A stretch of DNA of 52,767 nucleotides, from positions 1 to 52,767 of IMG/VR virus record IMGVR_UViG_3300034346_000019; one strand, given 5' to 3'. Below, one piece after another: positions 20,486 to 52,767 of the stretch. Source of the stretch: a virus. Under the pieces are notes generated by a model. The model was not told where the DNA came from. It worked only from the letters and a program-made list of their open reading frames with translations, and did not search any database. Made by a program: the position numbers and the translations under genes. How positions within the stretch are numbered: the first letter of the stretch is position 1; every line of letters begins with the position of its first letter.

Positions 20486-20995
20486 ATGAAAATTAAAGAA
20501 ATAAAAATGAATCAATATTTAGAAATGATTTCAGACCCCAAAAACTTTGCTTATGTAATTGCCGCATATCTGAGTATTGACGTGGAACTGTTCGGGATTC
20601 TCCTTACAATACTATTTATTAATAGTGTATTTGGAGCAATAAGAGAGGTTAGGTTTGGTGTTGACTTTAGCAAGAAAAAATTCCTTTGGGGCTGGGCTTT
20701 AAAGCATGACGTATTAATAATTCTCTTAGCGGTTTTTGTACTAGGAAAAGCAGCGGGAAAAGATTTTTCAATTGGTGTAGATGCTATGTTGAGAATTTTA
20801 ATCGTAGCAGAAATATACTCAATCCTTGGAAACTTCTATATGATTAGAACAAAAAAGAAAGTCAAGAAATTCGACATAGTAACTTTTCTTATAAAGCTAT
20901 TGCGTAATAAGATTGAGTTCTACCTAAGAAGGTTTAAAATAGTAATTGAGTCAAAAGGTGATTGCGAGATGAACAATAAAGATAAAGAGATATGA
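20486..20995 (+). CDS. Holin (phage_holin_4 / LL-H-type family, putative)
   Basis: 3-4 TM helices, FSKKKF..G..K and VAEIYSILGN motifs like family-4 holins; immediately upstream of the endolysin with an ATGA overlap. Confidence 0.65.
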   Translation: MKIKEIKMNQYLEMISDPKNFAYVIAAYLSIDVELFGILLTILFINSVFGAIREVRFGVDFSKKKFLWGWALKHDVLIILLAVFVLGKAAGKDFSIGVDAMLRILIVAEIYSILGNFYMIRTKKKVKKFDIVTFLIKLLRNKIEFYLRRFKIVIESKGDCEMNNKDKEI

Positions 20996-21411
20996 ATACA
21001 GATATTATAGAAAACGCCTTAAATGAAATAGGAAAAAAAGAGATAGTAGGAAGTAAGCACAATCCAAGAGTTTTAGAGTATTTCAAAACAGTAGGGCATT
21101 CGTGGGTTAAAAATGATGAAACCGCGTGGTGCGCTGCTTTTGTAGGATATGTTTTAGAAAGATCAGGATATAGCTCTACAAGAAAGCTAAACGCTAGATC
21201 ATACATAAACTACGGAGAAAGCACGAAAGACCCGCAAAAAGGGGATATAGTAGTATTTTGGCGTAATGGTCGTAATTCTGCTTACGGACACGTTGCGTTC
21301 TTTGTTAGACAGACTAAAAATTGGATTTGGGTGCTAGGAGGTAATCAAAACAATGAGGTGAATATATCTAAATATCACAAATCAAGATTATTAGATTTTA
21401 GAACATTTTAA
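20992..21411 (+). CDS. Endolysin, NlpC/P60-CHAP-type peptidoglycan hydrolase (TIGR02594-like)
   Basis: ETAWCAAFVGYV (catalytic Cys) and GHVAFFV (His) motifs; follows the holin. Confidence 0.8.
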   Translation: MNTDIIENALNEIGKKEIVGSKHNPRVLEYFKTVGHSWVKNDETAWCAAFVGYVLERSGYSSTRKLNARSYINYGESTKDPQKGDIVVFWRNGRNSAYGHVAFFVRQTKNWIWVLGGNQNNEVNISKYHKSRLLDFRTF

Positions 21412-27066: not shown

Positions 27067-27070
27067 ATAA

Positions 27071-27097
27071 ATATACGGAAGTTTTAAAAAACGAATA
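27071..27097 (+). repeat. Copy A of the ATATACGGAAGTTTTAAAA(AA)CGAATA intergenic element
   Basis: 27 nt vs 25 nt, identical apart from a 2-nt A-run length difference with the reverse complement of 29779..29803; ends 3 nt before ATG 27101. Confidence 0.85.
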
Positions 27098-28317: not shown

Positions 28318-29469
28318 TTAGTAATCAGGTGTGTTTTCAATAATATCACGCTTATACACACCTGTTGTTTCTTTCAAATAAATATCCGTCATTTTAGCGG
28401 AGCTATGCCCATACTGATTCTGTATGGATTCTTTGCTTACCCCAGCAACGTATTTATCGTCACCGCCTTTTCGCTTGTATGAATACATAGTTACATCAAT
28501 TCCTAAGCCTTTTTTTACGATTCTTCTCCAGCGTTTTGTAGCGGTGTCTGTTTTAATTGGAGTTGGCGCGGGTATAAAATCAATAAACTTTCCAACGTTT
28601 CCGCGTCCGCGCTCTCTATAGCTTCCAAACAAATAAAAATCTTTTGGATATTTATGCAATTCCATTGATAATAAAATAGTTTTTAACCCTCTAGGAATAA
28701 CTACATTTCTTTTTTTAGTCCCCGATTTAGTGATCTTTGGTGGTAACCTTATTTCGTTGTTATCAAGATTAATCATTTCTAATTGAATAGAAAGTATTTC
28801 AGAAGGACGTATACCTGTATAGTACTCGGTAGCAATGAAGTTGTTGAAATACGGATAAAAACCGCTTAACTCGTTCTTAATTACCTCGTGATCCTCGTTA
28901 GTTGGCTTTTCGTGTAGTGTACTTTCTTCTTCTGGAAGCCTGTCAATTAGATAGACAGGATTGTGCTCTATAATATCCCATTTAAGAACTTCAACAATAA
29001 CCGCGCTTAAGTAATTAAGATTTTTGTTATACGATTTGTTTGACCATTTAAATTCTTCTTTTGCTTTTTCCGCTAGAGTTCGTATGTGAACACGTTTCAC
29101 TTCTTTAACCGAAAGATCATTCCAAGATAGAAGGTTTACAATTTTTCTAAAAGAAGAAACTGTGCCTTTATATCCTGAGAATGTTTTTTTTGCTAAGCGG
29201 TCTTTTTTCTTATCCAGCGCAAAATTCAAGGCTTCGACAAAAGTCATTTCTTTTTTTGCTTGGACTTTAATAAGTGGATTCCAGCCATTTTTTAGCTTGT
29301 CGTGCAATGCTTTTTTTAAGATGTTTGCGTGTATTTCGCGCTCTTTTAGGCATTCGATACGGTTGATTCCGTACTTATACACTTTCTTTTTTCCTTGATA
29401 GCGGGTGTAGATGTACCATCCTTCAGCTGCTTTACATAGCTTAGGCACTGTGAAAATTGATTTTTCCAT
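28318..29469 (-). CDS. int: Tyrosine recombinase / phage integrase (Bacteroidota type)
   Basis: 383 aa; N-terminal arm/SAM-like region, YTGIRPSEIL (catalytic Arg box), C-terminal GHSSAKMTDIYL (His...Tyr). Confidence 0.9.
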   Translation of the reverse strand: MEKSIFTVPKLCKAAEGWYIYTRYQGKKKVYKYGINRIECLKEREIHANILKKALHDKLKNGWNPLIKVQAKKEMTFVEALNFALDKKKDRLAKKTFSGYKGTVSSFRKIVNLLSWNDLSVKEVKRVHIRTLAEKAKEEFKWSNKSYNKNLNYLSAVIVEVLKWDIIEHNPVYLIDRLPEEESTLHEKPTNEDHEVIKNELSGFYPYFNNFIATEYYTGIRPSEILSIQLEMINLDNNEIRLPPKITKSGTKKRNVVIPRGLKTILLSMELHKYPKDFYLFGSYRERGRGNVGKFIDFIPAPTPIKTDTATKRWRRIVKKGLGIDVTMYSYKRKGGDDKYVAGVSKESIQNQYGHSSAKMTDIYLKETTGVYKRDIIENTPDY

Positions 29470-29778: not shown

Positions 29779-29803
29779 TATTCGTTTTAAAACTTCCGTA
29801 TAT
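29779..29803 (-). repeat. Copy B (minus orientation) of the ATATACGGAAGTTTTAAAACGAATA element
   Basis: Reverse complement matches 27071..27097. Confidence 0.85.
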
Positions 29804-29867
29804 TTTTTTAACATTTATTTAAGAGAATTATAAATATAATATACTGTTAGTTAGGTATTTGTGAAAG

Positions 29868-29877
29868 TTCCGTATAT
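29868..29877 (-). repeat. Copy C (core ATATACGGAA, minus orientation)
   Basis: 10-nt core identical to the other copies; flanks differ. Confidence 0.6.
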
Positions 29878-32716: not shown

Positions 32717-32995
32717 TTATTTAATTATTATGTATTTATGTTTAAACTTTATTTTAAGTTTTTTACATATCTTATTAAGATTAGGGTTGCTTAACAGCGT
32801 GTCACTTTCGCCTTTAGAAACCGCCTTTATATTATTATAGGTTGTTTGACTCACGAAATACTTATGTTTCTTTAAATCCCTTAGTTTGAAGGAGGTTAAA
32901 TTTTCTTTTACCATATCGGCATCAATTAACGCGAGTAGGTATTTATAAAAATCCTTTGTGCTTAGTTCAACTTCTTTGTTTTTATTTTCTTCCAT
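32717..32995 (-). CDS. Putative HTH (XRE-like) regulator (92 aa)
   Basis: KLRDLKKHKYFVSQTTYNNIKAVSKGESDTLLSNPNLNKICKKLKI resembles an HTH_XRE core; heads a leftward operon divergent from a rightward promoter. Confidence 0.5.
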   Translation of the reverse strand: MEENKNKEVELSTKDFYKYLLALIDADMVKENLTSFKLRDLKKHKYFVSQTTYNNIKAVSKGESDTLLSNPNLNKICKKLKIKFKHKYIIIK

Positions 32996-33049
32996 AAAAC
33001 AAAGATACTTAAAAAATAAATAACATCACTAAAAATAAACTCAAATACA

Positions 33050-33081
33050 TTTGGTATCGTTAAATAAAAGTGATATATTTG
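33050..33081 (+). promoter_or_regulatory. Rightward promoter TTTG-N20-TATATTTG
   Basis: TTTG 33050..33053; TATATTTG 33074..33081. Confidence 0.6.
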
Positions 33082-33119
33082 TACCAACAAAAACAGATAG
33101 TCACACAAAACTAAATATT

Positions 33120-33335
33120 ATGAAAACAGAATTACTAAATCAATTAAAAGCAGATACAGAGTTATTGATGGGGAATGACTCAGTTGTTAATTTTGAATCG
33201 ATTGGGAATATATGTTTTGAATTTGAAATGTCAACAATAAAACAGGCAAATAGATTATTTAGATTATGGAGAAGAGGATTTCGAAGTTGGACTATTGAAA
33301 AAAAAGGAAGAAAAGTAAAAGTAAGAATGTATTAG
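33120..33335 (+). CDS. Hypothetical protein (71 aa)
   Basis: The track ORF starts at TTG 33051 inside the promoter; ATG 33120 (MKTELLNQ) is preferred. Confidence 0.5.
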   Translation: MKTELLNQLKADTELLMGNDSVVNFESIGNICFEFEMSTIKQANRLFRLWRRGFRSWTIEKKGRKVKVRMY

Positions 33336-35417: not shown

Positions 35418-35723
35418 ATGAGTAATCAAATAATCCATGAAGGCGAAATAACTTTAGGCGAAACGGTTATTTCTTGTTACGTACTAAAAGACGGCACAAG
35501 AGTACTTTCTGGACGCGGTATGCAAGAGGCTTTGAGCATGGTCGATGAAGTCGAAGAGGGTAAGCAAAAAGCTGGGACCAGATTGACCAGATATTTAGGT
35601 CAAAAATCTCTTAAACCCTTTATTTACAAGGGAAAGGAGCTGGACCACTTCGACAGGCTTATTTTCCCACACAGAAAACTTACATTATTTTTTAAAAGCG
35701 GGGGAAAATACCTGTTTTTTTGA
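35418..35723 (+). pseudogene. N-terminal fragment of a P63C-domain-like phage protein (truncated)
   Basis: GEITLGETVISCYVLKDGTRVLSGRGMQEAL...LGQKSLKPFI matches the P63C-family N-terminus as I recall it. The frame then degenerates (RLIFPHRKLTLFFKSGGKYLFF*) and is followed by 265 nt of non-coding AT-rich DNA. Confidence 0.45.
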
Positions 35724-35952
35724 AACTACGGGAATTGAACGGATATTTTATGTAGATTAACAGATTAAATAGGTACATTACAACATAGTAAGGTAAAACC
35801 GTAACATTAATACGGTATTCAAATAAAACAACAAATACGCTAAATATACATGAAAATATTATGTATTATTGACGTGTTGAAATAATAATTAATCAACAAC
35901 GGATAGTGAATAAAAGAAAGTGATATTGCTAAAAACCAAACGATTAACGTGT

Positions 35953-35960
35953 TATTTTTG
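35953..35960 (+). promoter_or_regulatory. -7 box TATTTTTG upstream of the envelope-protein cassette
   Basis: Matches TAnnTTTG, 29 nt before ATG 35989; -33 element poor. Confidence 0.35.
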
Positions 35961-35988
35961 AGGTGTAAAAATCTTAAATCAGCATATA

Positions 35989-36159
35989 ATGAAAAAATCA
36001 ATACTATTATTAGCAGTACTATTTAGCCTTTCTTTTATCTCTTGTACGGACAACCTAGCAGAAGATGAATCAATCAATGAACAAATCGAACTTACCGACA
36101 AAGGAAACGTTGGAAGTCCAGGGAATGACGGCGGAGACGACGAGGATTCGGACGACTAA
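35989..36159 (+). CDS. Small acidic lipoprotein (56 aa)
   Basis: MKKSILLLAVLFSLSFISC lipobox, then a D/E-rich tail; 57 codons. Confidence 0.5.
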   Translation: MKKSILLLAVLFSLSFISCTDNLAEDESINEQIELTDKGNVGSPGNDGGDDEDSDD

Positions 36160-36904
36160 ATATATTTGCACTGCGCTATCTTTTTTAATCGTTCTTATAT
36201 TCCTATCTCATTCATTAATTGAGGTTCACGACACTAATACAGTGCAAGCGCGAAGCGATCACAAGTCAGCTAAGAAGCAAAAAAACGAAGCTGCAAAACA
36301 ACTACTACTACATATAGATAAATTAAATAGCGGTGATTTGACTAAAAATCAATTCACCGCTTTAACTTCTCCATTAAGTAAGGAACATAAGGAACTTACA
36401 AAAATATCAGCTTCAAAATACAAAGTATTAAATCAAGCAAAGAAAGACGCGAAAGTGTTAGGGTTTTTAAATCTTAATGTATTCGCTTTTCAGTTTGGTA
36501 TATTCTCTATACTATTTATCTTTTCGATTATTTTTTATATTCTTGGAAGACCAGAAAAATACAAAACTCTTGTTAATTCACACAAAAGGTTTTCAATTCT
36601 ATTTATGAGTATATCACTATATTATTTAGTTTGGACTTTTTACCCGTATTCAGATCTTCCGAGGCAATTTCATTTAGCAGCAATGTTTTTGATAGGTTTT
36701 ATATTATCAGTTGCAGTAATGAGCTTAATAGATTGGAAGTTTGAGAAGAAAGCAATCATACAATTATATAAAGACAATTTCAAAATACTATTTAGATTCA
36801 TCGCGATAACCGCGAAGGATTATGTCGACCCCTCCAAAGCGACACCATATAAGAAAAAATATATTACTGAAGTAGTTGATAATTTTAAATTACCCGAAGA
36901 ATGA
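36065..36904 (+). CDS. Polytopic inner-membrane protein with a soluble helical insert
   Basis: TM near ICTALSFLIVLIFL, a ~100-aa Lys-rich helical domain, then 3-4 TM helices. The true start is probably ATG 36125, still overlapping the lipoprotein ORF. Confidence 0.6.
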   Translation: MNQSMNKSNLPTKETLEVQGMTAETTRIRTTKYICTALSFLIVLIFLSHSLIEVHDTNTVQARSDHKSAKKQKNEAAKQLLLHIDKLNSGDLTKNQFTALTSPLSKEHKELTKISASKYKVLNQAKKDAKVLGFLNLNVFAFQFGIFSILFIFSIIFYILGRPEKYKTLVNSHKRFSILFMSISLYYLVWTFYPYSDLPRQFHLAAMFLIGFILSVAVMSLIDWKFEKKAIIQLYKDNFKILFRFIAITAKDYVDPSKATPYKKKYITEVVDNFKLPEE

Positions 36905-37080
36905 GGAGCGAAGACAAGATAAAAAAATTAGAAGAGTTTGGCATAATTGATCCAGATGTAAGCGGTGTGATTAAATCAGACTACGAAAAGATCAAAGAAG
37001 AACTAAAAGAAGAAACGGAACAAAGAACGTCAAGCCTTATTAGTGCAGCTAAATGTGCTAATATCAAACTTTTTATATAA
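36901..37080 (+). CDS. Hypothetical small protein (59 aa)
   Basis: ATGA overlap with the upstream stop. Confidence 0.45.
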   Translation: MRSEDKIKKLEEFGIIDPDVSGVIKSDYEKIKEELKEETEQRTSSLISAAKCANIKLFI

Positions 37081-37081
37081 C

Positions 37082-37091
37082 ATATACGGAA
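37082..37091 (+). repeat. Copy D (core ATATACGGAA) of the intergenic element
   Basis: 10-nt core identical to the other copies; lies upstream of 37159. Confidence 0.6.
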
Positions 37092-37102
37092 TACCGTAAA
37101 AC

Positions 37103-37134
37103 AAAGCAATATTAATTCGTTAGTATTGCTTTTT
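37103..37134 (+). terminator. Rho-independent terminator (AAAGCAATA...TATTGCTTT plus T-run)
   Basis: 9-bp stem followed by TTTT. Confidence 0.6.
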
Positions 37135-37158
37135 GATATTTAAACTAAAATCTAAATT

Positions 37159-37698
37159 ATGAAAAAACTATTACTACTATCACTACTATTTATTCTATCA
37201 TTTACAGCTATTTACGCGCAAAATATACCTAAATTTGAAATAACCAAAGAAGGCATTGATCCGATTGTTGTAAAAGTGGATAGCTTAAAATCAAATGTGC
37301 TGTATGAAAAAACACTTGAATGGGTTAATTCAGCGTTTAAAAACCCAAAAGAAGTTATTGTAGGTGATATTAAAAACAAGAGCTTAAGAATAAGTGGGTA
37401 TGAAAAATCAGCTTACGATTACGGCGGGGCTTTTGGAACAACTTTTAAAGGTGATATTGAGTTTCAAATACTTTTAGACTTTAAAGACAATAAGTACAGG
37501 ATGGAAATTAAATTTATAAAACTTTATGATTATACGGGATCTGTGTATAATTTTAAACCAAGTAGTTATTATAAAAAATCAGGAGAGATAAAAAAAAGGC
37601 ATAAAAAAGAAAAGCAAGGTCTCACAGATTTTGCAAACAGATATTCTAAAATGATTAATGATTATATTGCGAACAAAGATTATAAAGATAAATGGTAA
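37159..37698 (+). CDS. Secreted protein (179 aa), DUF4468-like by eye
   Basis: Signal peptide MKKLLLLSLLFILSFTAIYAQ; own upstream terminator and own downstream terminator. Confidence 0.7.
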   Translation: MKKLLLLSLLFILSFTAIYAQNIPKFEITKEGIDPIVVKVDSLKSNVLYEKTLEWVNSAFKNPKEVIVGDIKNKSLRISGYEKSAYDYGGAFGTTFKGDIEFQILLDFKDNKYRMEIKFIKLYDYTGSVYNFKPSSYYKKSGEIKKRHKKEKQGLTDFANRYSKMINDYIANKDYKDKW

Positions 37699-37738
37699 GA
37701 CTTGAATTTTATTAAAAACATAATTAATCTAACTATTC

Positions 37739-37771
37739 AAAAGATCACTTTAAACGGTGGTCTTTTTTTTT
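37739..37771 (+). terminator. Terminator hairpin plus T9 run, overlapping the 3' end of the convergent regulator gene
   Basis: AAAAGATCAC...GTGGTCTTTT (one G-T wobble) then a T-run. Confidence 0.55.
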
Positions 37772-38181
37772 GCTACATACTCTACTTCAATATTATTATC
37801 TTCTAATACTTTTTTAAACTTCTTGTTTGCTTCACCGTCAATTATAAGGCTTATTAACGGTCTTTTTAATACGGTTTCTAGGTTTTTATAGAAACTCATT
37901 TCAAACTCCTTTAGGGTTACTTCGTAACCTCCTACCATTATAGTATCTTTTTCTTGAATATACGTTTCACTATCTTCTTTTACCACACTATTACTATATA
38001 AAAAGTTATAAAGCGTGTTTACAGTCAGATCATGAGGTCTTTTTATCTCTCCACGAAACAATTTAGACAGTCCAGACTCCTTCAATTCAGTATGTTTCGC
38101 TATATAATAAGAAGTAATACCTTCTTTCTCCACTTTTTCTAGTATTTTTTTTAGTTTCTCTCCTTTGGTTAATTCACTCAT
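37750..38181 (-). CDS. HTH DNA-binding regulator (candidate lysogeny repressor), 143 aa
   Basis: N-terminal GITSYYIAKHTELKESGLSKLFRG HTH-like segment; divergent from the rightward replication operon promoter. Confidence 0.6.
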   Translation of the reverse strand: MSELTKGEKLKKILEKVEKEGITSYYIAKHTELKESGLSKLFRGEIKRPHDLTVNTLYNFLYSNSVVKEDSETYIQEKDTIMVGGYEVTLKEFEMSFYKNLETVLKRPLISLIIDGEANKKFKKVLEDNNIEVEYVAKKKTTV

Positions 38182-38231
38182 AATAAGCGTTTTAGGTTAT
38201 ATATTTCGGTAGGATTGACGTTTTTTAACAT

Positions 38232-38250
38232 AATATTACCACAATATTAC
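38232..38250. promoter_or_regulatory. Operator-like direct repeats AATATTAC-N3-AATATTAC
   Basis: Copies at 38232 and 38243 (11-nt phasing) between the divergent regulator gene and the promoter; related ATTATTAC at 38274. Confidence 0.35.
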
Positions 38251-38259
38251 TATAAATAT

Positions 38260-38291
38260 TTTGATTGTATAGTATTATTACTGTATATTTG
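38260..38291 (+). promoter_or_regulatory. Rightward promoter TTTG-N20-TATATTTG
   Basis: TTTG 38260..38263; TATATTTG 38284..38291. Confidence 0.6.
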
Positions 38292-38332
38292 TACATGTAC
38301 AACGGAACGTATTAACGCAAATATAAAAAATC

Positions 38333-47120: not shown

Positions 47121-47284
47121 TAAAAAAGAAGCTCCCGTGTGAACAGGAGCTAAATAAAAGCCTTGGTGTTGAAACCAAATCTTTCTAAGTGGAATTACAA
47201 AGATACAATTCTTCATCAAAGCTTTCAATCGAAAGCGGAAGCCGAAAAGCTAATAGAGTAGGCAAATTTTAAAACAATTATATA

Positions 47285-52298: not shown

Positions 52299-52767
52299 TG
52301 AATATAGTAATAGAAAAACCAAATTTAGCGGACTATCAAAAAGACTTTCTTTATAACGATAGTCGTTTCACAGTCACCGAAGCAAGTACTAAGGTGGGTA
52401 AAACGTTTTCGCATATCTGGTGGATTTATGAACAAGCTCATGCGGATTGGAACAAAGAAGGGTATAATCATTGGTGGGTTGCTCCTGTGTATTCTCAAGC
52501 AAAGATTGCGTTTAAGAGGCTTAAAAATAAAGTAGGTCGTACGGGATTGTATAAGATTAATGAAAGTAACCTAACAATAACAACCCCTATAGGCACAGTT
52601 ATTCATTTTAAGTCAGCAGATAAACCCGATAATCTTTTTGGAGAAGATGTATATTCTATTGTATTCGATGAAGCACCTCGTGCAAAAGTAGATGCTTTTT
52701 ATGCGTTACGCTCCACGATAACTGCTACGCGTGGTAAAATGAAGTTAATAGGTAATTTTGGAGGAAC
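52298..52767 (+). CDS. terL: Terminase large subunit, N-terminal ATPase part (runs off the window end and continues at 1..860)
   Basis: Walker A EASTKVGKT, Walker B SIVFDEA; no stop before the window end. Confidence 0.85.
   Translation, partial: MNIVIEKPNLADYQKDFLYNDSRFTVTEASTKVGKTFSHIWWIYEQAHADWNKEGYNHWWVAPVYSQAKIAFKRLKNKVGRTGLYKINESNLTITTPIGTVIHFKSADKPDNLFGEDVYSIVFDEAPRAKVDAFYALRSTITATRGKMKLIGNFGG
52713..52767. repeat. Terminal overlap copy 2 (identical to 1..55)
   Basis: Read directly. Confidence 0.95.

Follow-up and report, generated by a model that had tools for sequence, protein, structure and literature searches.

A conserved envelope-gene trio convergent with a candidate repressor gene in the lysogeny region of a temperate phage genome

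In lactococcal phages, in the Streptococcus thermophilus phage TP-J34 and in mycobacteriophages, the slot between the integrase gene and the CI-type repressor gene is occupied by superinfection exclusion (Sie) or other prophage defence genes (sie2009, ltp and the mycobacteriophage prophage defences, respectively). Sie2009 and Ltp are presumed to be expressed in the lysogen and are thought to act at DNA entry. To our knowledge, hardly any work has been done in Bacteroidota on the control of lysogeny or on defence encoded by prophages. This work deals with three genes (the trio), for a mini-lipoprotein, a four-transmembrane (four-TM) inner-membrane protein and a small cytoplasmic protein, and with the convergent gene of a candidate CI/434-type repressor, all located in the IMG/VR virus record IMGVR_UViG_3300034346_000019 (positions 1 to 52,767; this whole stretch of 52,767 nucleotides is referred to as the window). 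Like sie2009 and ltp, the trio adjoins or lies between integrase and CI-type repressor genes and gives membrane or lipoprotein products; those genes are, however, single, co-oriented with the repressor gene and found in Gram-positive hosts, whereas the trio comprises three genes, is convergent with the repressor gene, belongs to a diderm host and also occurs on non-phage elements. Neither sequence nor fold similarity was found between them.

The trio and convergent repressor gene represent, with high confidence, a conserved and previously undescribed module with its own Bacteroidota promoter. The region under study is assigned, equally with high confidence, to that arm of a complete, circular genome of a temperate phage which carries the lysogeny switch.

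The trio and the convergent repressor gene

Conservation and synteny were assessed on about 22 loci (L001–L023 and one further contig), which were read as DNA or as gene calls. A first search with the 279-aa membrane open reading frame (ORF) against 5.8 billion clusters gave four other close homologues only (50–59 % identity); a profile search of 1.84 billion cluster representatives gave 122 clusters at E ≤ 1e-3, all of them 160–360 aa long and of one architecture. The trio genes were found to be conserved from 59 % down to ~20 % identity. The membrane ORF is preceded and overlapped by a lipoprotein ORF of 47–63 aa in all copies but one (the second tandem copy of L017), and is followed in every locus examined by an ORF of 55–87 aa, with stop and start codons usually overlapping. 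In every locus with downstream DNA the next conserved gene encodes a convergent XRE-type helix-turn-helix (HTH) protein of 118–166 aa, and in compact loci the 3′ end of this gene abuts or overlaps that of the small ORF. Judged by this arrangement, the repressor gene behaves as a fourth member of the module.

The carriers are diverse (Table 1). The trio is placed between an integrase gene and a CI-like repressor gene in L018, L023 and L006. In the Kordia genomes the neighbouring cluster for a ribosomally synthesised and post-translationally modified peptide (RiPP) consists of two GG-leader peptide genes, an ATP-grasp gene and a SPASM radical-SAM gene; a large serine recombinase gene is located upstream in L008 and L010, in L008 beside ftsZ.

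An earlier note, made from the letters of this DNA alone, had proposed that a set of envelope-targeted genes, equipped with a promoter and terminators of its own, lies beside a repressor-like HTH gene, and that description stands. All four ORFs that it listed (35989–36159, 36065–36904, 36901–37080 and 37159–37698) are present, and its view that no virion, lysis or named defence family is represented agrees with the lack of PHROGs, Pfam, NCBIfam and PADLOC matches for genes 1–3; homology to virion or lysis proteins, named there as grounds for abandoning the proposal, was not found, and the holin and lysozyme genes are situated at 20486–21411. The description as one self-contained four-gene moron had to be given up: genes 1–3 are constant and tied to the repressor gene, and gene 4 is variable. 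The comparison with syntenic relatives that the note had suggested gave a divided result: gene 4 is replaced or absent, and genes 1–3 are present in every related locus. The trio module is larger and more conserved than had been supposed, trio plus repressor being carried by many mobile elements.

In an alignment of the lipoprotein from 13 loci, M1, C19, K38 and G45 were invariant and S18 and P44 nearly so; the window protein carries the motif TDKGxVxSPG, the family form of which is [ST]-D-K-G-[DE]-V-x-[SA]-P-G. The mature lipopeptides are 26–40 aa long across the loci, with net charges of -5 to -13. In the window the lipoprotein and membrane genes overlap by 95 nt, the membrane ORF being in the +1 frame; the out-of-frame overlap amounts to 59–98 nt in all measured loci. 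TM1 begins directly after the lipoprotein stop codon. No start codon is available between that stop codon and TM1 in L003 and L004, and the upstream ATG must therefore be used in these two loci; the evidence for the predicted dual coding is this need for an upstream start before TM1, together with the ever-present ATG. In the overlapping stretch, conservation is higher in the lipoprotein frame (mean pairwise identity 0.46 vs 0.34). Asp and Glu codons of the lipoprotein tail are read in the +1 frame as Thr, Arg and Lys, which give the membrane protein its positively charged N-tail in the cytoplasm, so that one stretch of DNA encodes both an acidic periplasmic tail and a basic cytoplasmic anchor. 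The open +1 frame was dropped as proof of dual coding, since codon shuffles remain open in most loci; acidic codon composition explains the stop-free frame. A fusion of lipoprotein and membrane protein by a programmed +1 frameshift was also considered and was found less parsimonious than separate initiation.

The membrane protein was modelled with AlphaFold2 by using a 124-sequence alignment (predicted local distance difference test (pLDDT) 92.6, predicted template modelling score (pTM) 0.81); this model replaced that of an earlier run with a 5-sequence alignment, which was poor (pLDDT 63.9). The model consists, in this order, of TM1, a helical hairpin (residues 57–129), TM2, TM3, TM4, a long helix continuing TM4 and a final helix. 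Mean net charges over the 124 family sequences were +3.3 for the N-tail, +2.1 for the TM2–TM3 loop and -0.8 for the TM3–TM4 loop; because of these family charge statistics the N-terminus and the C-tail are placed in the cytoplasm and the hairpin in the periplasm. The strongly conserved residues (H49, G133, F134, F140, G145, W190, F192, D197, P199 and Y203) all lie around the hairpin base, on the periplasmic face. An apparent pairing of the acidic lipoprotein with a basic hairpin was discarded, as it is true only of the window clade; the family-wide net charge of the hairpin is about +1. The membrane family had no match in PHROGs, NCBIfam and PADLOC and no consistent Pfam family. A Foldseek search with the model gave nothing in the PDB (best E 0.66) or BFVD (best E 0.31) other than generic coiled-coil or MFP-hairpin pieces, and profiles of the membrane and small proteins gave nothing meaningful against PDB sequences. 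The family thus appears to be uncharacterised, with a confidently predicted fold that has no counterpart in PDB or BFVD. The Joint Genome Institute (JGI) gene call of this ORF (36242–36904, protein P0001) starts at Val60 and hence is without TM1; its JGI name, 'predicted phosphatase', was supported by no library.

The gene of the small protein is probably translationally coupled to the membrane gene, given the ATGA overlap. Its product has an N-terminal K-x-K-K-L-x3-G-x-I motif and a hydrophobic C-terminal tip, and gave no match in Pfam, PDB or NCBIfam. A SHOCT-like N-terminus was considered and rejected, 0 of 14 members matching SHOCT.

The leftward HTH gene had been picked out earlier as the repressor candidate, a choice that was borne out. 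The window protein alone gave weak HTH matches only; a profile of 12 syntenic HTH homologues matched the 434 repressor (6e-10), P22 C2 and ICEBs1 ImmR, and the L006 homologue matched HTH_3 at 3e-5. A Peptidase_S24 domain was not found in any module HTH protein examined. The gene is divergent from the rightward early/replication genes (from 38333), and the same layout is present in L022 and L023. The N-domain of the repressor is 57 % identical to that of L006 and its C-domain 74 % identical to that of L001, from which it follows that the two domains reassort. An S24-type repressor of a Leeuwenhoekiella phage has its HTH in common with the window repressor.

Across 14 loci the small protein co-varied with the repressor C-domain (r 0.57, Mantel p 0.0002; partial r 0.48 given the membrane protein). 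Within the window clade, membrane C-tail (A or B), small protein and repressor C-domain fall into two matching types (window and L001 vs L004 and L006), and reassortment of the HTH domain does not follow these types. With so small a sample, and with genes that adjoin one another, both the co-variation and the matching types are suggestive only.

Regulatory elements, cargo slot and genome setting

The -7 box that the earlier note had placed at 35953 is present as TATTTTTG. The motif TAnnTTTG alone occurs at chance in the window (88 matches vs 89.4 expected). Exact TAnnTTTG was found 35–39 nt 5′ of the lipoprotein ATG in 9 of 17 loci (window, L003, four Kordia loci, L014, L018 and L023), and TAnnTTTA at -33 to -41 in four more (L001, L004, L006 and L022); a -7 box is hence present at a conserved position, 33–41 nt 5′ of the lipoprotein ATG, in 13 of the 17 loci, compared with a background of 2.8 % of 45-nt windows. 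The box is regarded as informative because its position is kept among relatives, though the motif alone is at chance.

The ORF at the left boundary matches only positions 48–112 of the 338-position phrog_2384 (E 6.4e-13), and is for this reason read as truncated, as had been claimed. DNA homology of the window to L003 begins at window position 35701, and that to L001 at 35793. The palindrome upstream of the promoter belongs to a family with the consensus TTACGGT-AAA-ACCGTAA, or a split version of it. Equivalent palindromes are located 185–310 nt 5′ of the trio in L001, L003 (degenerate), L006, Kordia L008 and L010, and Aquimarina L013 and L015; such palindromes occur about once per 14 kb in the loci examined. 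The element is kept across the window clade, Kordia and Aquimarina despite ~30 % protein identity and differing HTH domains, and was flagged as terminator-like on the minus strand by the terminator scan. It may be an operator or an insulator/terminator.

At the other end of the trio, the hairpin directly 3′ of the small ORF is kept in L001 as TACGGATAACCGTA and has the same arms as the upstream palindrome. The ATATACGGAA element, a copy of which had been reported after the trio, is present there at 37082; the window contains four exact copies, and 14 copies with ≤ 1 mismatch against 5.1 expected, a number reached by 0 of 100 shuffles. The two terminators previously described as flanking the cargo gene both fold (dG -11.5 and -11.3) and have counterparts in L001. 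The first of them was not called by the scan (fewer than three G–C pairs), and its hairpin is kept in L001; an analogue of the second (37739–37766) is likewise found in that locus. The switch region between the repressor gene and the rightward operon contains TAATATT-N5-AATATTA and the direct repeat AATATTAC at 38232 and 38243. An operator common to the trio promoter region and this switch region was sought and rejected, one 10-mer being held in common, at about chance level.

Table 1. Coordinates of features in the window, followed by the arrangement of the module in other loci (positions are those of the window unless a locus is named).
Feature	Position	Strand	Description
Holin	20486-20995		Pairs with lysozyme
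Lysozyme	20992-21411		Pairs with holin
Tyrosine integrase	28318-29469	-	
Truncated remnant of phrog_2384-type gene	35418..35723	+	Left boundary of conserved module
Palindromic element	35791..35817	.	GGTAAAACCGTAA-N5-TACGGTA; ~190 nt 5′ of lipoprotein start
Inverted repeat	35846..35866	.	ATACAT-N9-ATGTAT; 5′ of promoter; kept in L001 with changes in both arms (ATACAC...GTGTAT)
Bacteroidota-type -7 box	35953..35960	+	TATTTTTG; predicted trio-operon promoter
Mini-lipoprotein	35989..36159	+	56 aa; signal peptide, lipobox ...LSFISC, Cys19; 37-aa very acidic mature peptide
Four-TM inner-membrane protein	36065..36904	+	279 aa; N-in, ~80-aa periplasmic helical hairpin, cytoplasmic C-terminal helical tail
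Small helical acidic cytoplasmic protein	36901..37080	+	59 aa; start inside ATGA overlap with membrane ORF stop
Hairpin	37085..37098	+	TACGG-N4-CCGTA; directly 3′ of small ORF; dG -5.0; includes ATATACGGAA copy at 37082
Intrinsic terminator	37103..37134	+	End of trio operon; 13-bp stem, dG -11.5, then T-run
Secreted DUF4468 protein gene	37159..37698	+	179 aa; signal peptide ...AIYA/Q; variable cargo
Bidirectional terminator	37739..37766	.	Found by scan, dG -11.3; between cargo gene and convergent repressor gene
CI/434-type repressor candidate	37750..38181	-	143 aa; N-terminal HTH, ~65-aa C-terminal domain
Divergent switch region	38182..38332	.	Between repressor and rightward early/replication operon; repeated AATATTA(C) half-sites 38231-38261
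Replication module	40-46 kb		Reached via rightward genes from 38333 onward
L022, L023			Prophage arms: (integrase in L023), trio, repressor, then early operon
L006			Prophage within 327-kb contig
L018			Integrase, trio, HTH, later relaxase: mobilisable element
L015			Adjoins an integrase
L016			2.5-kb island amid housekeeping genes: trio, HTH, Cro-like ORF, one more ORF only
L017	4147-7444		Two tandem units (membrane protein, small protein, convergent HTH); lipoprotein ORF in first copy only; TssD (type VI secretion) gene upstream
L008-L012	~9.8-13.0 kb		Five Kordia genomes; HTH gene faces grasp-with-spasm-type RiPP cluster; serine recombinase near

The cargo protein was identified as a member of PF14730 (DUF4468, TBP-like fold; 34.8 bits vs a cutoff of 22.6, residues 37–121) and matches phrog_4002 (E 1e-10); a DUF4468 homologue is annotated in Flavobacterium phage laban6-1. 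DUF4468 is a family without known function, which the literature mentions only in passing. Homology between the window and L001 extends over 35793–37175 (upstream region, trio, terminator and the signal-peptide codons of gene 4), is broken at 37176–37712, exactly over the mature cargo protein, resumes at 37713–37953 (terminator and C-terminal half of the repressor) and is broken again over the repressor HTH. The slot contains the DUF4468 gene in the window, the gene of an unrelated secreted protein in L001, that of a SHOCT-domain secreted protein in L003 and three other genes in L006, and is empty in at least 14 loci. The signal-peptide codons (37159–37175; L001 1680–1696) are part of the conserved flank, with the mature protein swapped, which suggests that secreted cargo is exchanged behind a fixed signal peptide. 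The DUF4468 gene is flanked by the two terminators, and in the 25 nt that follow the first of these no separate promoter was found. Of the features of a moron, the trio has its own promoter and terminator (conserved -7 box plus terminator); presence/absence or replacement among relatives was observed for the DUF4468 gene only, the trio being found in every related locus. On sequence grounds, the DUF4468 gene is the only moron-like gene of the set and amounts to ordinary cargo.

The window is a circularly closed assembly of ~52,712 bp, bases 1–55 being identical to bases 52713–52767; these identical ends mark it as a complete phage genome, as opposed to a prophage flanked by host DNA. It is AT-rich (~31 % GC) and carries tail and head genes, including those of the portal and the maturation protease. 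With its integrase, head and tail, lysis and replication genes it is therefore a temperate siphophage-like genome, the closest relatives of which point to Flavobacteriaceae hosts. No match was found by megablast of 34.5–39.5 kb against GenBank phages, by tblastn of four diverse membrane-family members against 50,697 GenBank phage records, or by pattern scans of viral contigs and metagenome contigs and a first genome-contig scan. An Rfam scan gave no known RNA within the cassette region.

Further observations were made outside the module. A DUF805b RNA motif (RF02914) at 47232–47264 (+; 49.5 bits vs a gathering threshold of 35.6, E 3.6e-11) is located late in the rightward early/replication operon. 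A second divergent junction (32717–33335) separates a leftward operon (29.9–33.0 kb) from a rightward small-gene operon (33.05–35.7 kb), and the leftward 92-aa ORF at 32717–32995 could be another regulator; otherwise the interval from integrase to trio consists of small unannotated ORFs. An imperfect repeat of ~29 bp, AAATATACGGAAGTTTTAAAA(A)ACGAATA, flanks the integrase gene in inverted orientation (27068–27097 (+) and 29779–29806 (-)), its core being found again at 29868–29877 (-); these repeats, which contain the ATATACGGAA core, may be arm-type or att-related sites.

Candidate functions of the module

The reading that we favour, if only tentatively, is that the trio is a lysogen-expressed envelope exclusion or defence module; superinfection exclusion is suggested by position and topology. 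According to this proposal the trio, with a promoter of its own, would not depend on the lytic operons for transcription and would for that reason be made in the lysogen. The mini-lipoprotein would be exported and lipidated, and its TDKGxVxSPG peptide would dock on the periplasmic face of the four-TM protein (His49, Gly133–Phe134, Trp190, Asp197–Pro199 and Tyr203), at the base of the ~80-aa hairpin, while the small cytoplasmic protein would bind the cytoplasmic C-terminal tail. The resulting inner-membrane/periplasm complex would sit on the route of incoming DNA and would protect the carrier against superinfecting phages or other mobile DNA. Such exclusion would complement repressor immunity and so account for the joint retention of repressor and trio, which extends to decayed elements.

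A defence role is favoured because the position of the trio matches the Sie-gene slot of other temperate phages, because its promoter is independent and conserved, because the predicted complex is placed at periplasm and inner membrane, and because intact trio-plus-repressor units persist in decayed or minimal islands. The L016 remnant, the tandem copies of L017 and the five Kordia genomes argue for host benefit, or for selfish retention, independent of a functional element.

Several points weigh against exclusion. No homology to known Sie or defence proteins was found in Pfam, PHROGs, PADLOC or NCBIfam. Known Sie genes are usually patchy in occurrence and co-oriented with the repressor gene, whereas the trio is strictly syntenic and convergent with it, with overlapping 3′ ends in compact loci. 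The module is also found on a relaxase-bearing element and beside a RiPP cluster, which would be unexpected for an entry-specific barrier of one phage. Finally, the co-variation hints that trio and repressor are functionally linked, which would not be required of a pure barrier; the small protein does not track the repressor HTH domain (r 0.08), nor does the HTH domain track the C-domain (r 0.10).

The main alternative, which we consider rather unlikely, is an envelope-to-repressor signalling pathway, in which lipoprotein and four-TM protein sense an envelope or extracellular cue that is passed through the C-tail and the small protein to the repressor C-domain and sets induction or excision, the small protein acting as a membrane-tethered partner-switch or anti-repressor. 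The HTH gene keeps its place beside the trio strictly in all element types, down to ~20 % identity, and in L017 the unit is duplicated together with its own HTH gene; the HTH domain reassorts freely while the C-domain co-varies with the small protein, and in the window clade the type of the membrane C-tail (A or B) follows that of the small protein. Moreover, the repressors are without an S24 autocleavage domain, so that another route of induction would be needed, and the products span periplasm, membrane and cytoplasm. The co-variation, however, comes from 14 loci that are dominated by three close pairs, and from adjacent genes, so that linkage alone may explain it; the genes are convergent and not co-transcribed, and the intact module persists in L016, where nothing is left to regulate.

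That same orphan, intact in a 2.5-kb island, and the tandem copies are typical of selfish modules and would suit an addiction or abortive-infection system, which we judge decidedly unlikely. The four-TM protein, with or without the lipoprotein, would here be a latent membrane-damaging effector held in check by the small and/or the HTH protein, the HTH C-domain resembling the toxin-binding domain of an XRE-type antitoxin, and loss of the element or phage attack would free the effector. The HTH profile also matches the antitoxins HipB, HigA and PezA, the L001 HTH protein has a sub-threshold MqsA_antitoxin match, and co-variation of small protein and HTH C-domain is what a neutralising pair would show. 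Type II toxin–antitoxin genes, in contrast, are co-transcribed and not convergent; similarity to holins or known membrane toxins was not found, the sole such match being to the BhlA holin at E 0.59; PADLOC gave no match for the trio and only a chance-level one for the HTH protein (PDC-M64C, E 0.015); and the conserved residues face the periplasm, with no obvious pore.

Lysogenic conversion apart from phage defence, that is, an altered envelope or surface through lipoprotein display, adhesion or envelope homeostasis, with secreted cargo as further factors, would account for the envelope targeting of all products and for an adjoining slot that collects unrelated secreted proteins behind a conserved signal-peptide-coding flank. 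It appears improbable, as no enzymatic or adhesin domain is present, the mature lipopeptide measures just 26–40 aa and conversion gives no reason why the trio should be so strictly tied to the repressor gene.

A two-component spanin or other lysis accessory, as in lambda Rz/Rz1 or P2 LysB/LysC, where a lipoprotein and a membrane protein with a periplasmic coiled-coil are likewise encoded out of frame in overlapping genes (a hallmark of spanins; PMC6139136), is hardly credible and was rejected: the +1 overlap of the lipoprotein gene with the gene of a protein bearing a periplasmic helical hairpin and the lipobox lipoprotein itself (signal peptide, invariant Cys after Ser) are present, but four of five spanin criteria fail, the trio differing in TM number and topology (four helices with both ends cytoplasmic vs the single N-terminal TM of an i-spanin), in gene order (the lipoprotein gene precedes the membrane gene and runs into its 5′ end in all loci, whereas an o-spanin gene lies within the i-spanin gene, across its 3′ end or after it; PMC6139136), in the missing periplasmic Cys of the mature lipoprotein, in its distance of 15 kb from holin and lysozyme, and in its occurrence on a mobilisable element and in non-phage islands without lysis genes.

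Whichever function applies, the module is compact and widespread, with four genes of which three come from families without annotation, and accompanies the repressor gene on mobile elements of very different kinds; it includes a deeply conserved, predicted dual-coding overlap and a defined cargo slot, in which secreted proteins are exchanged behind a conserved signal-peptide-coding flank. If exclusion is correct, these are envelope genes of the lysogeny module, with new protein families and a new architecture; if signalling is correct, they would constitute a portable membrane-controlled switch that serves Flavobacteriaceae phages, mobilisable elements and even a RiPP cluster, and that corresponds in its logic, in diderms, to the control of mobile elements by arbitrium or Rap–Phr. 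Cultured carriers (Kordia jejudonensis SSK3-3, K. aestuariivivens YSTF-M3, Aquimarina longa SW024 and Leptobacterium meishanense I13) make the function directly testable, and either outcome, a three-component envelope exclusion system or a membrane-to-repressor relay, would be new.

Comparison with known systems

No homology was found to Llp, Cor, Ltp, Sie2009, Imm, SieA, RexAB or TraT/TraS as represented in Pfam, PHROGs and PADLOC, and the comparison with described systems is one of arrangement and logic. Protection of the lysogen by immunity-linked genes is provided by lambda rexAB and P22 sieA/sieB, and RexB and SieA are polytopic inner-membrane proteins. Unlike the trio, rexAB is co-transcribed with cI and causes abortive infection through the cytoplasmic sensor RexA; it comprises neither a lipoprotein nor a periplasmic hairpin and is not homologous to the trio.

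The chain from a sensor (a lipoprotein or a small membrane protein) through a polytopic inner-membrane transducer and a small helical partner in the cytoplasm to a transcription factor, as envisaged for signalling to the repressor, is found in RcsF–IgaA and in PspBC–PspA–PspF, and the sequestration of Mlc by PtsG is a further functional analogue. The Rcs and Psp relays are chromosomal stress systems without homology to the trio, and we know of no Rcs- or Psp-like relay that feeds a phage or mobile-element repressor.

For exclusion, which we tentatively prefer, T5 Llp, phi80 and N15 Cor, and TraT with TraS of the F plasmid also offer a parallel: in each case a mobile element encodes a small lipoprotein, with or without an inner-membrane partner, that blocks related DNA. 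These proteins are not homologous to the trio and are directed at a specific receptor (FhuA) or at the cognate transfer apparatus; the trio lipoprotein, at 26–40 aa in its mature form, is much smaller than Llp, Cor or TraT, and its gene overlaps that of its partner.

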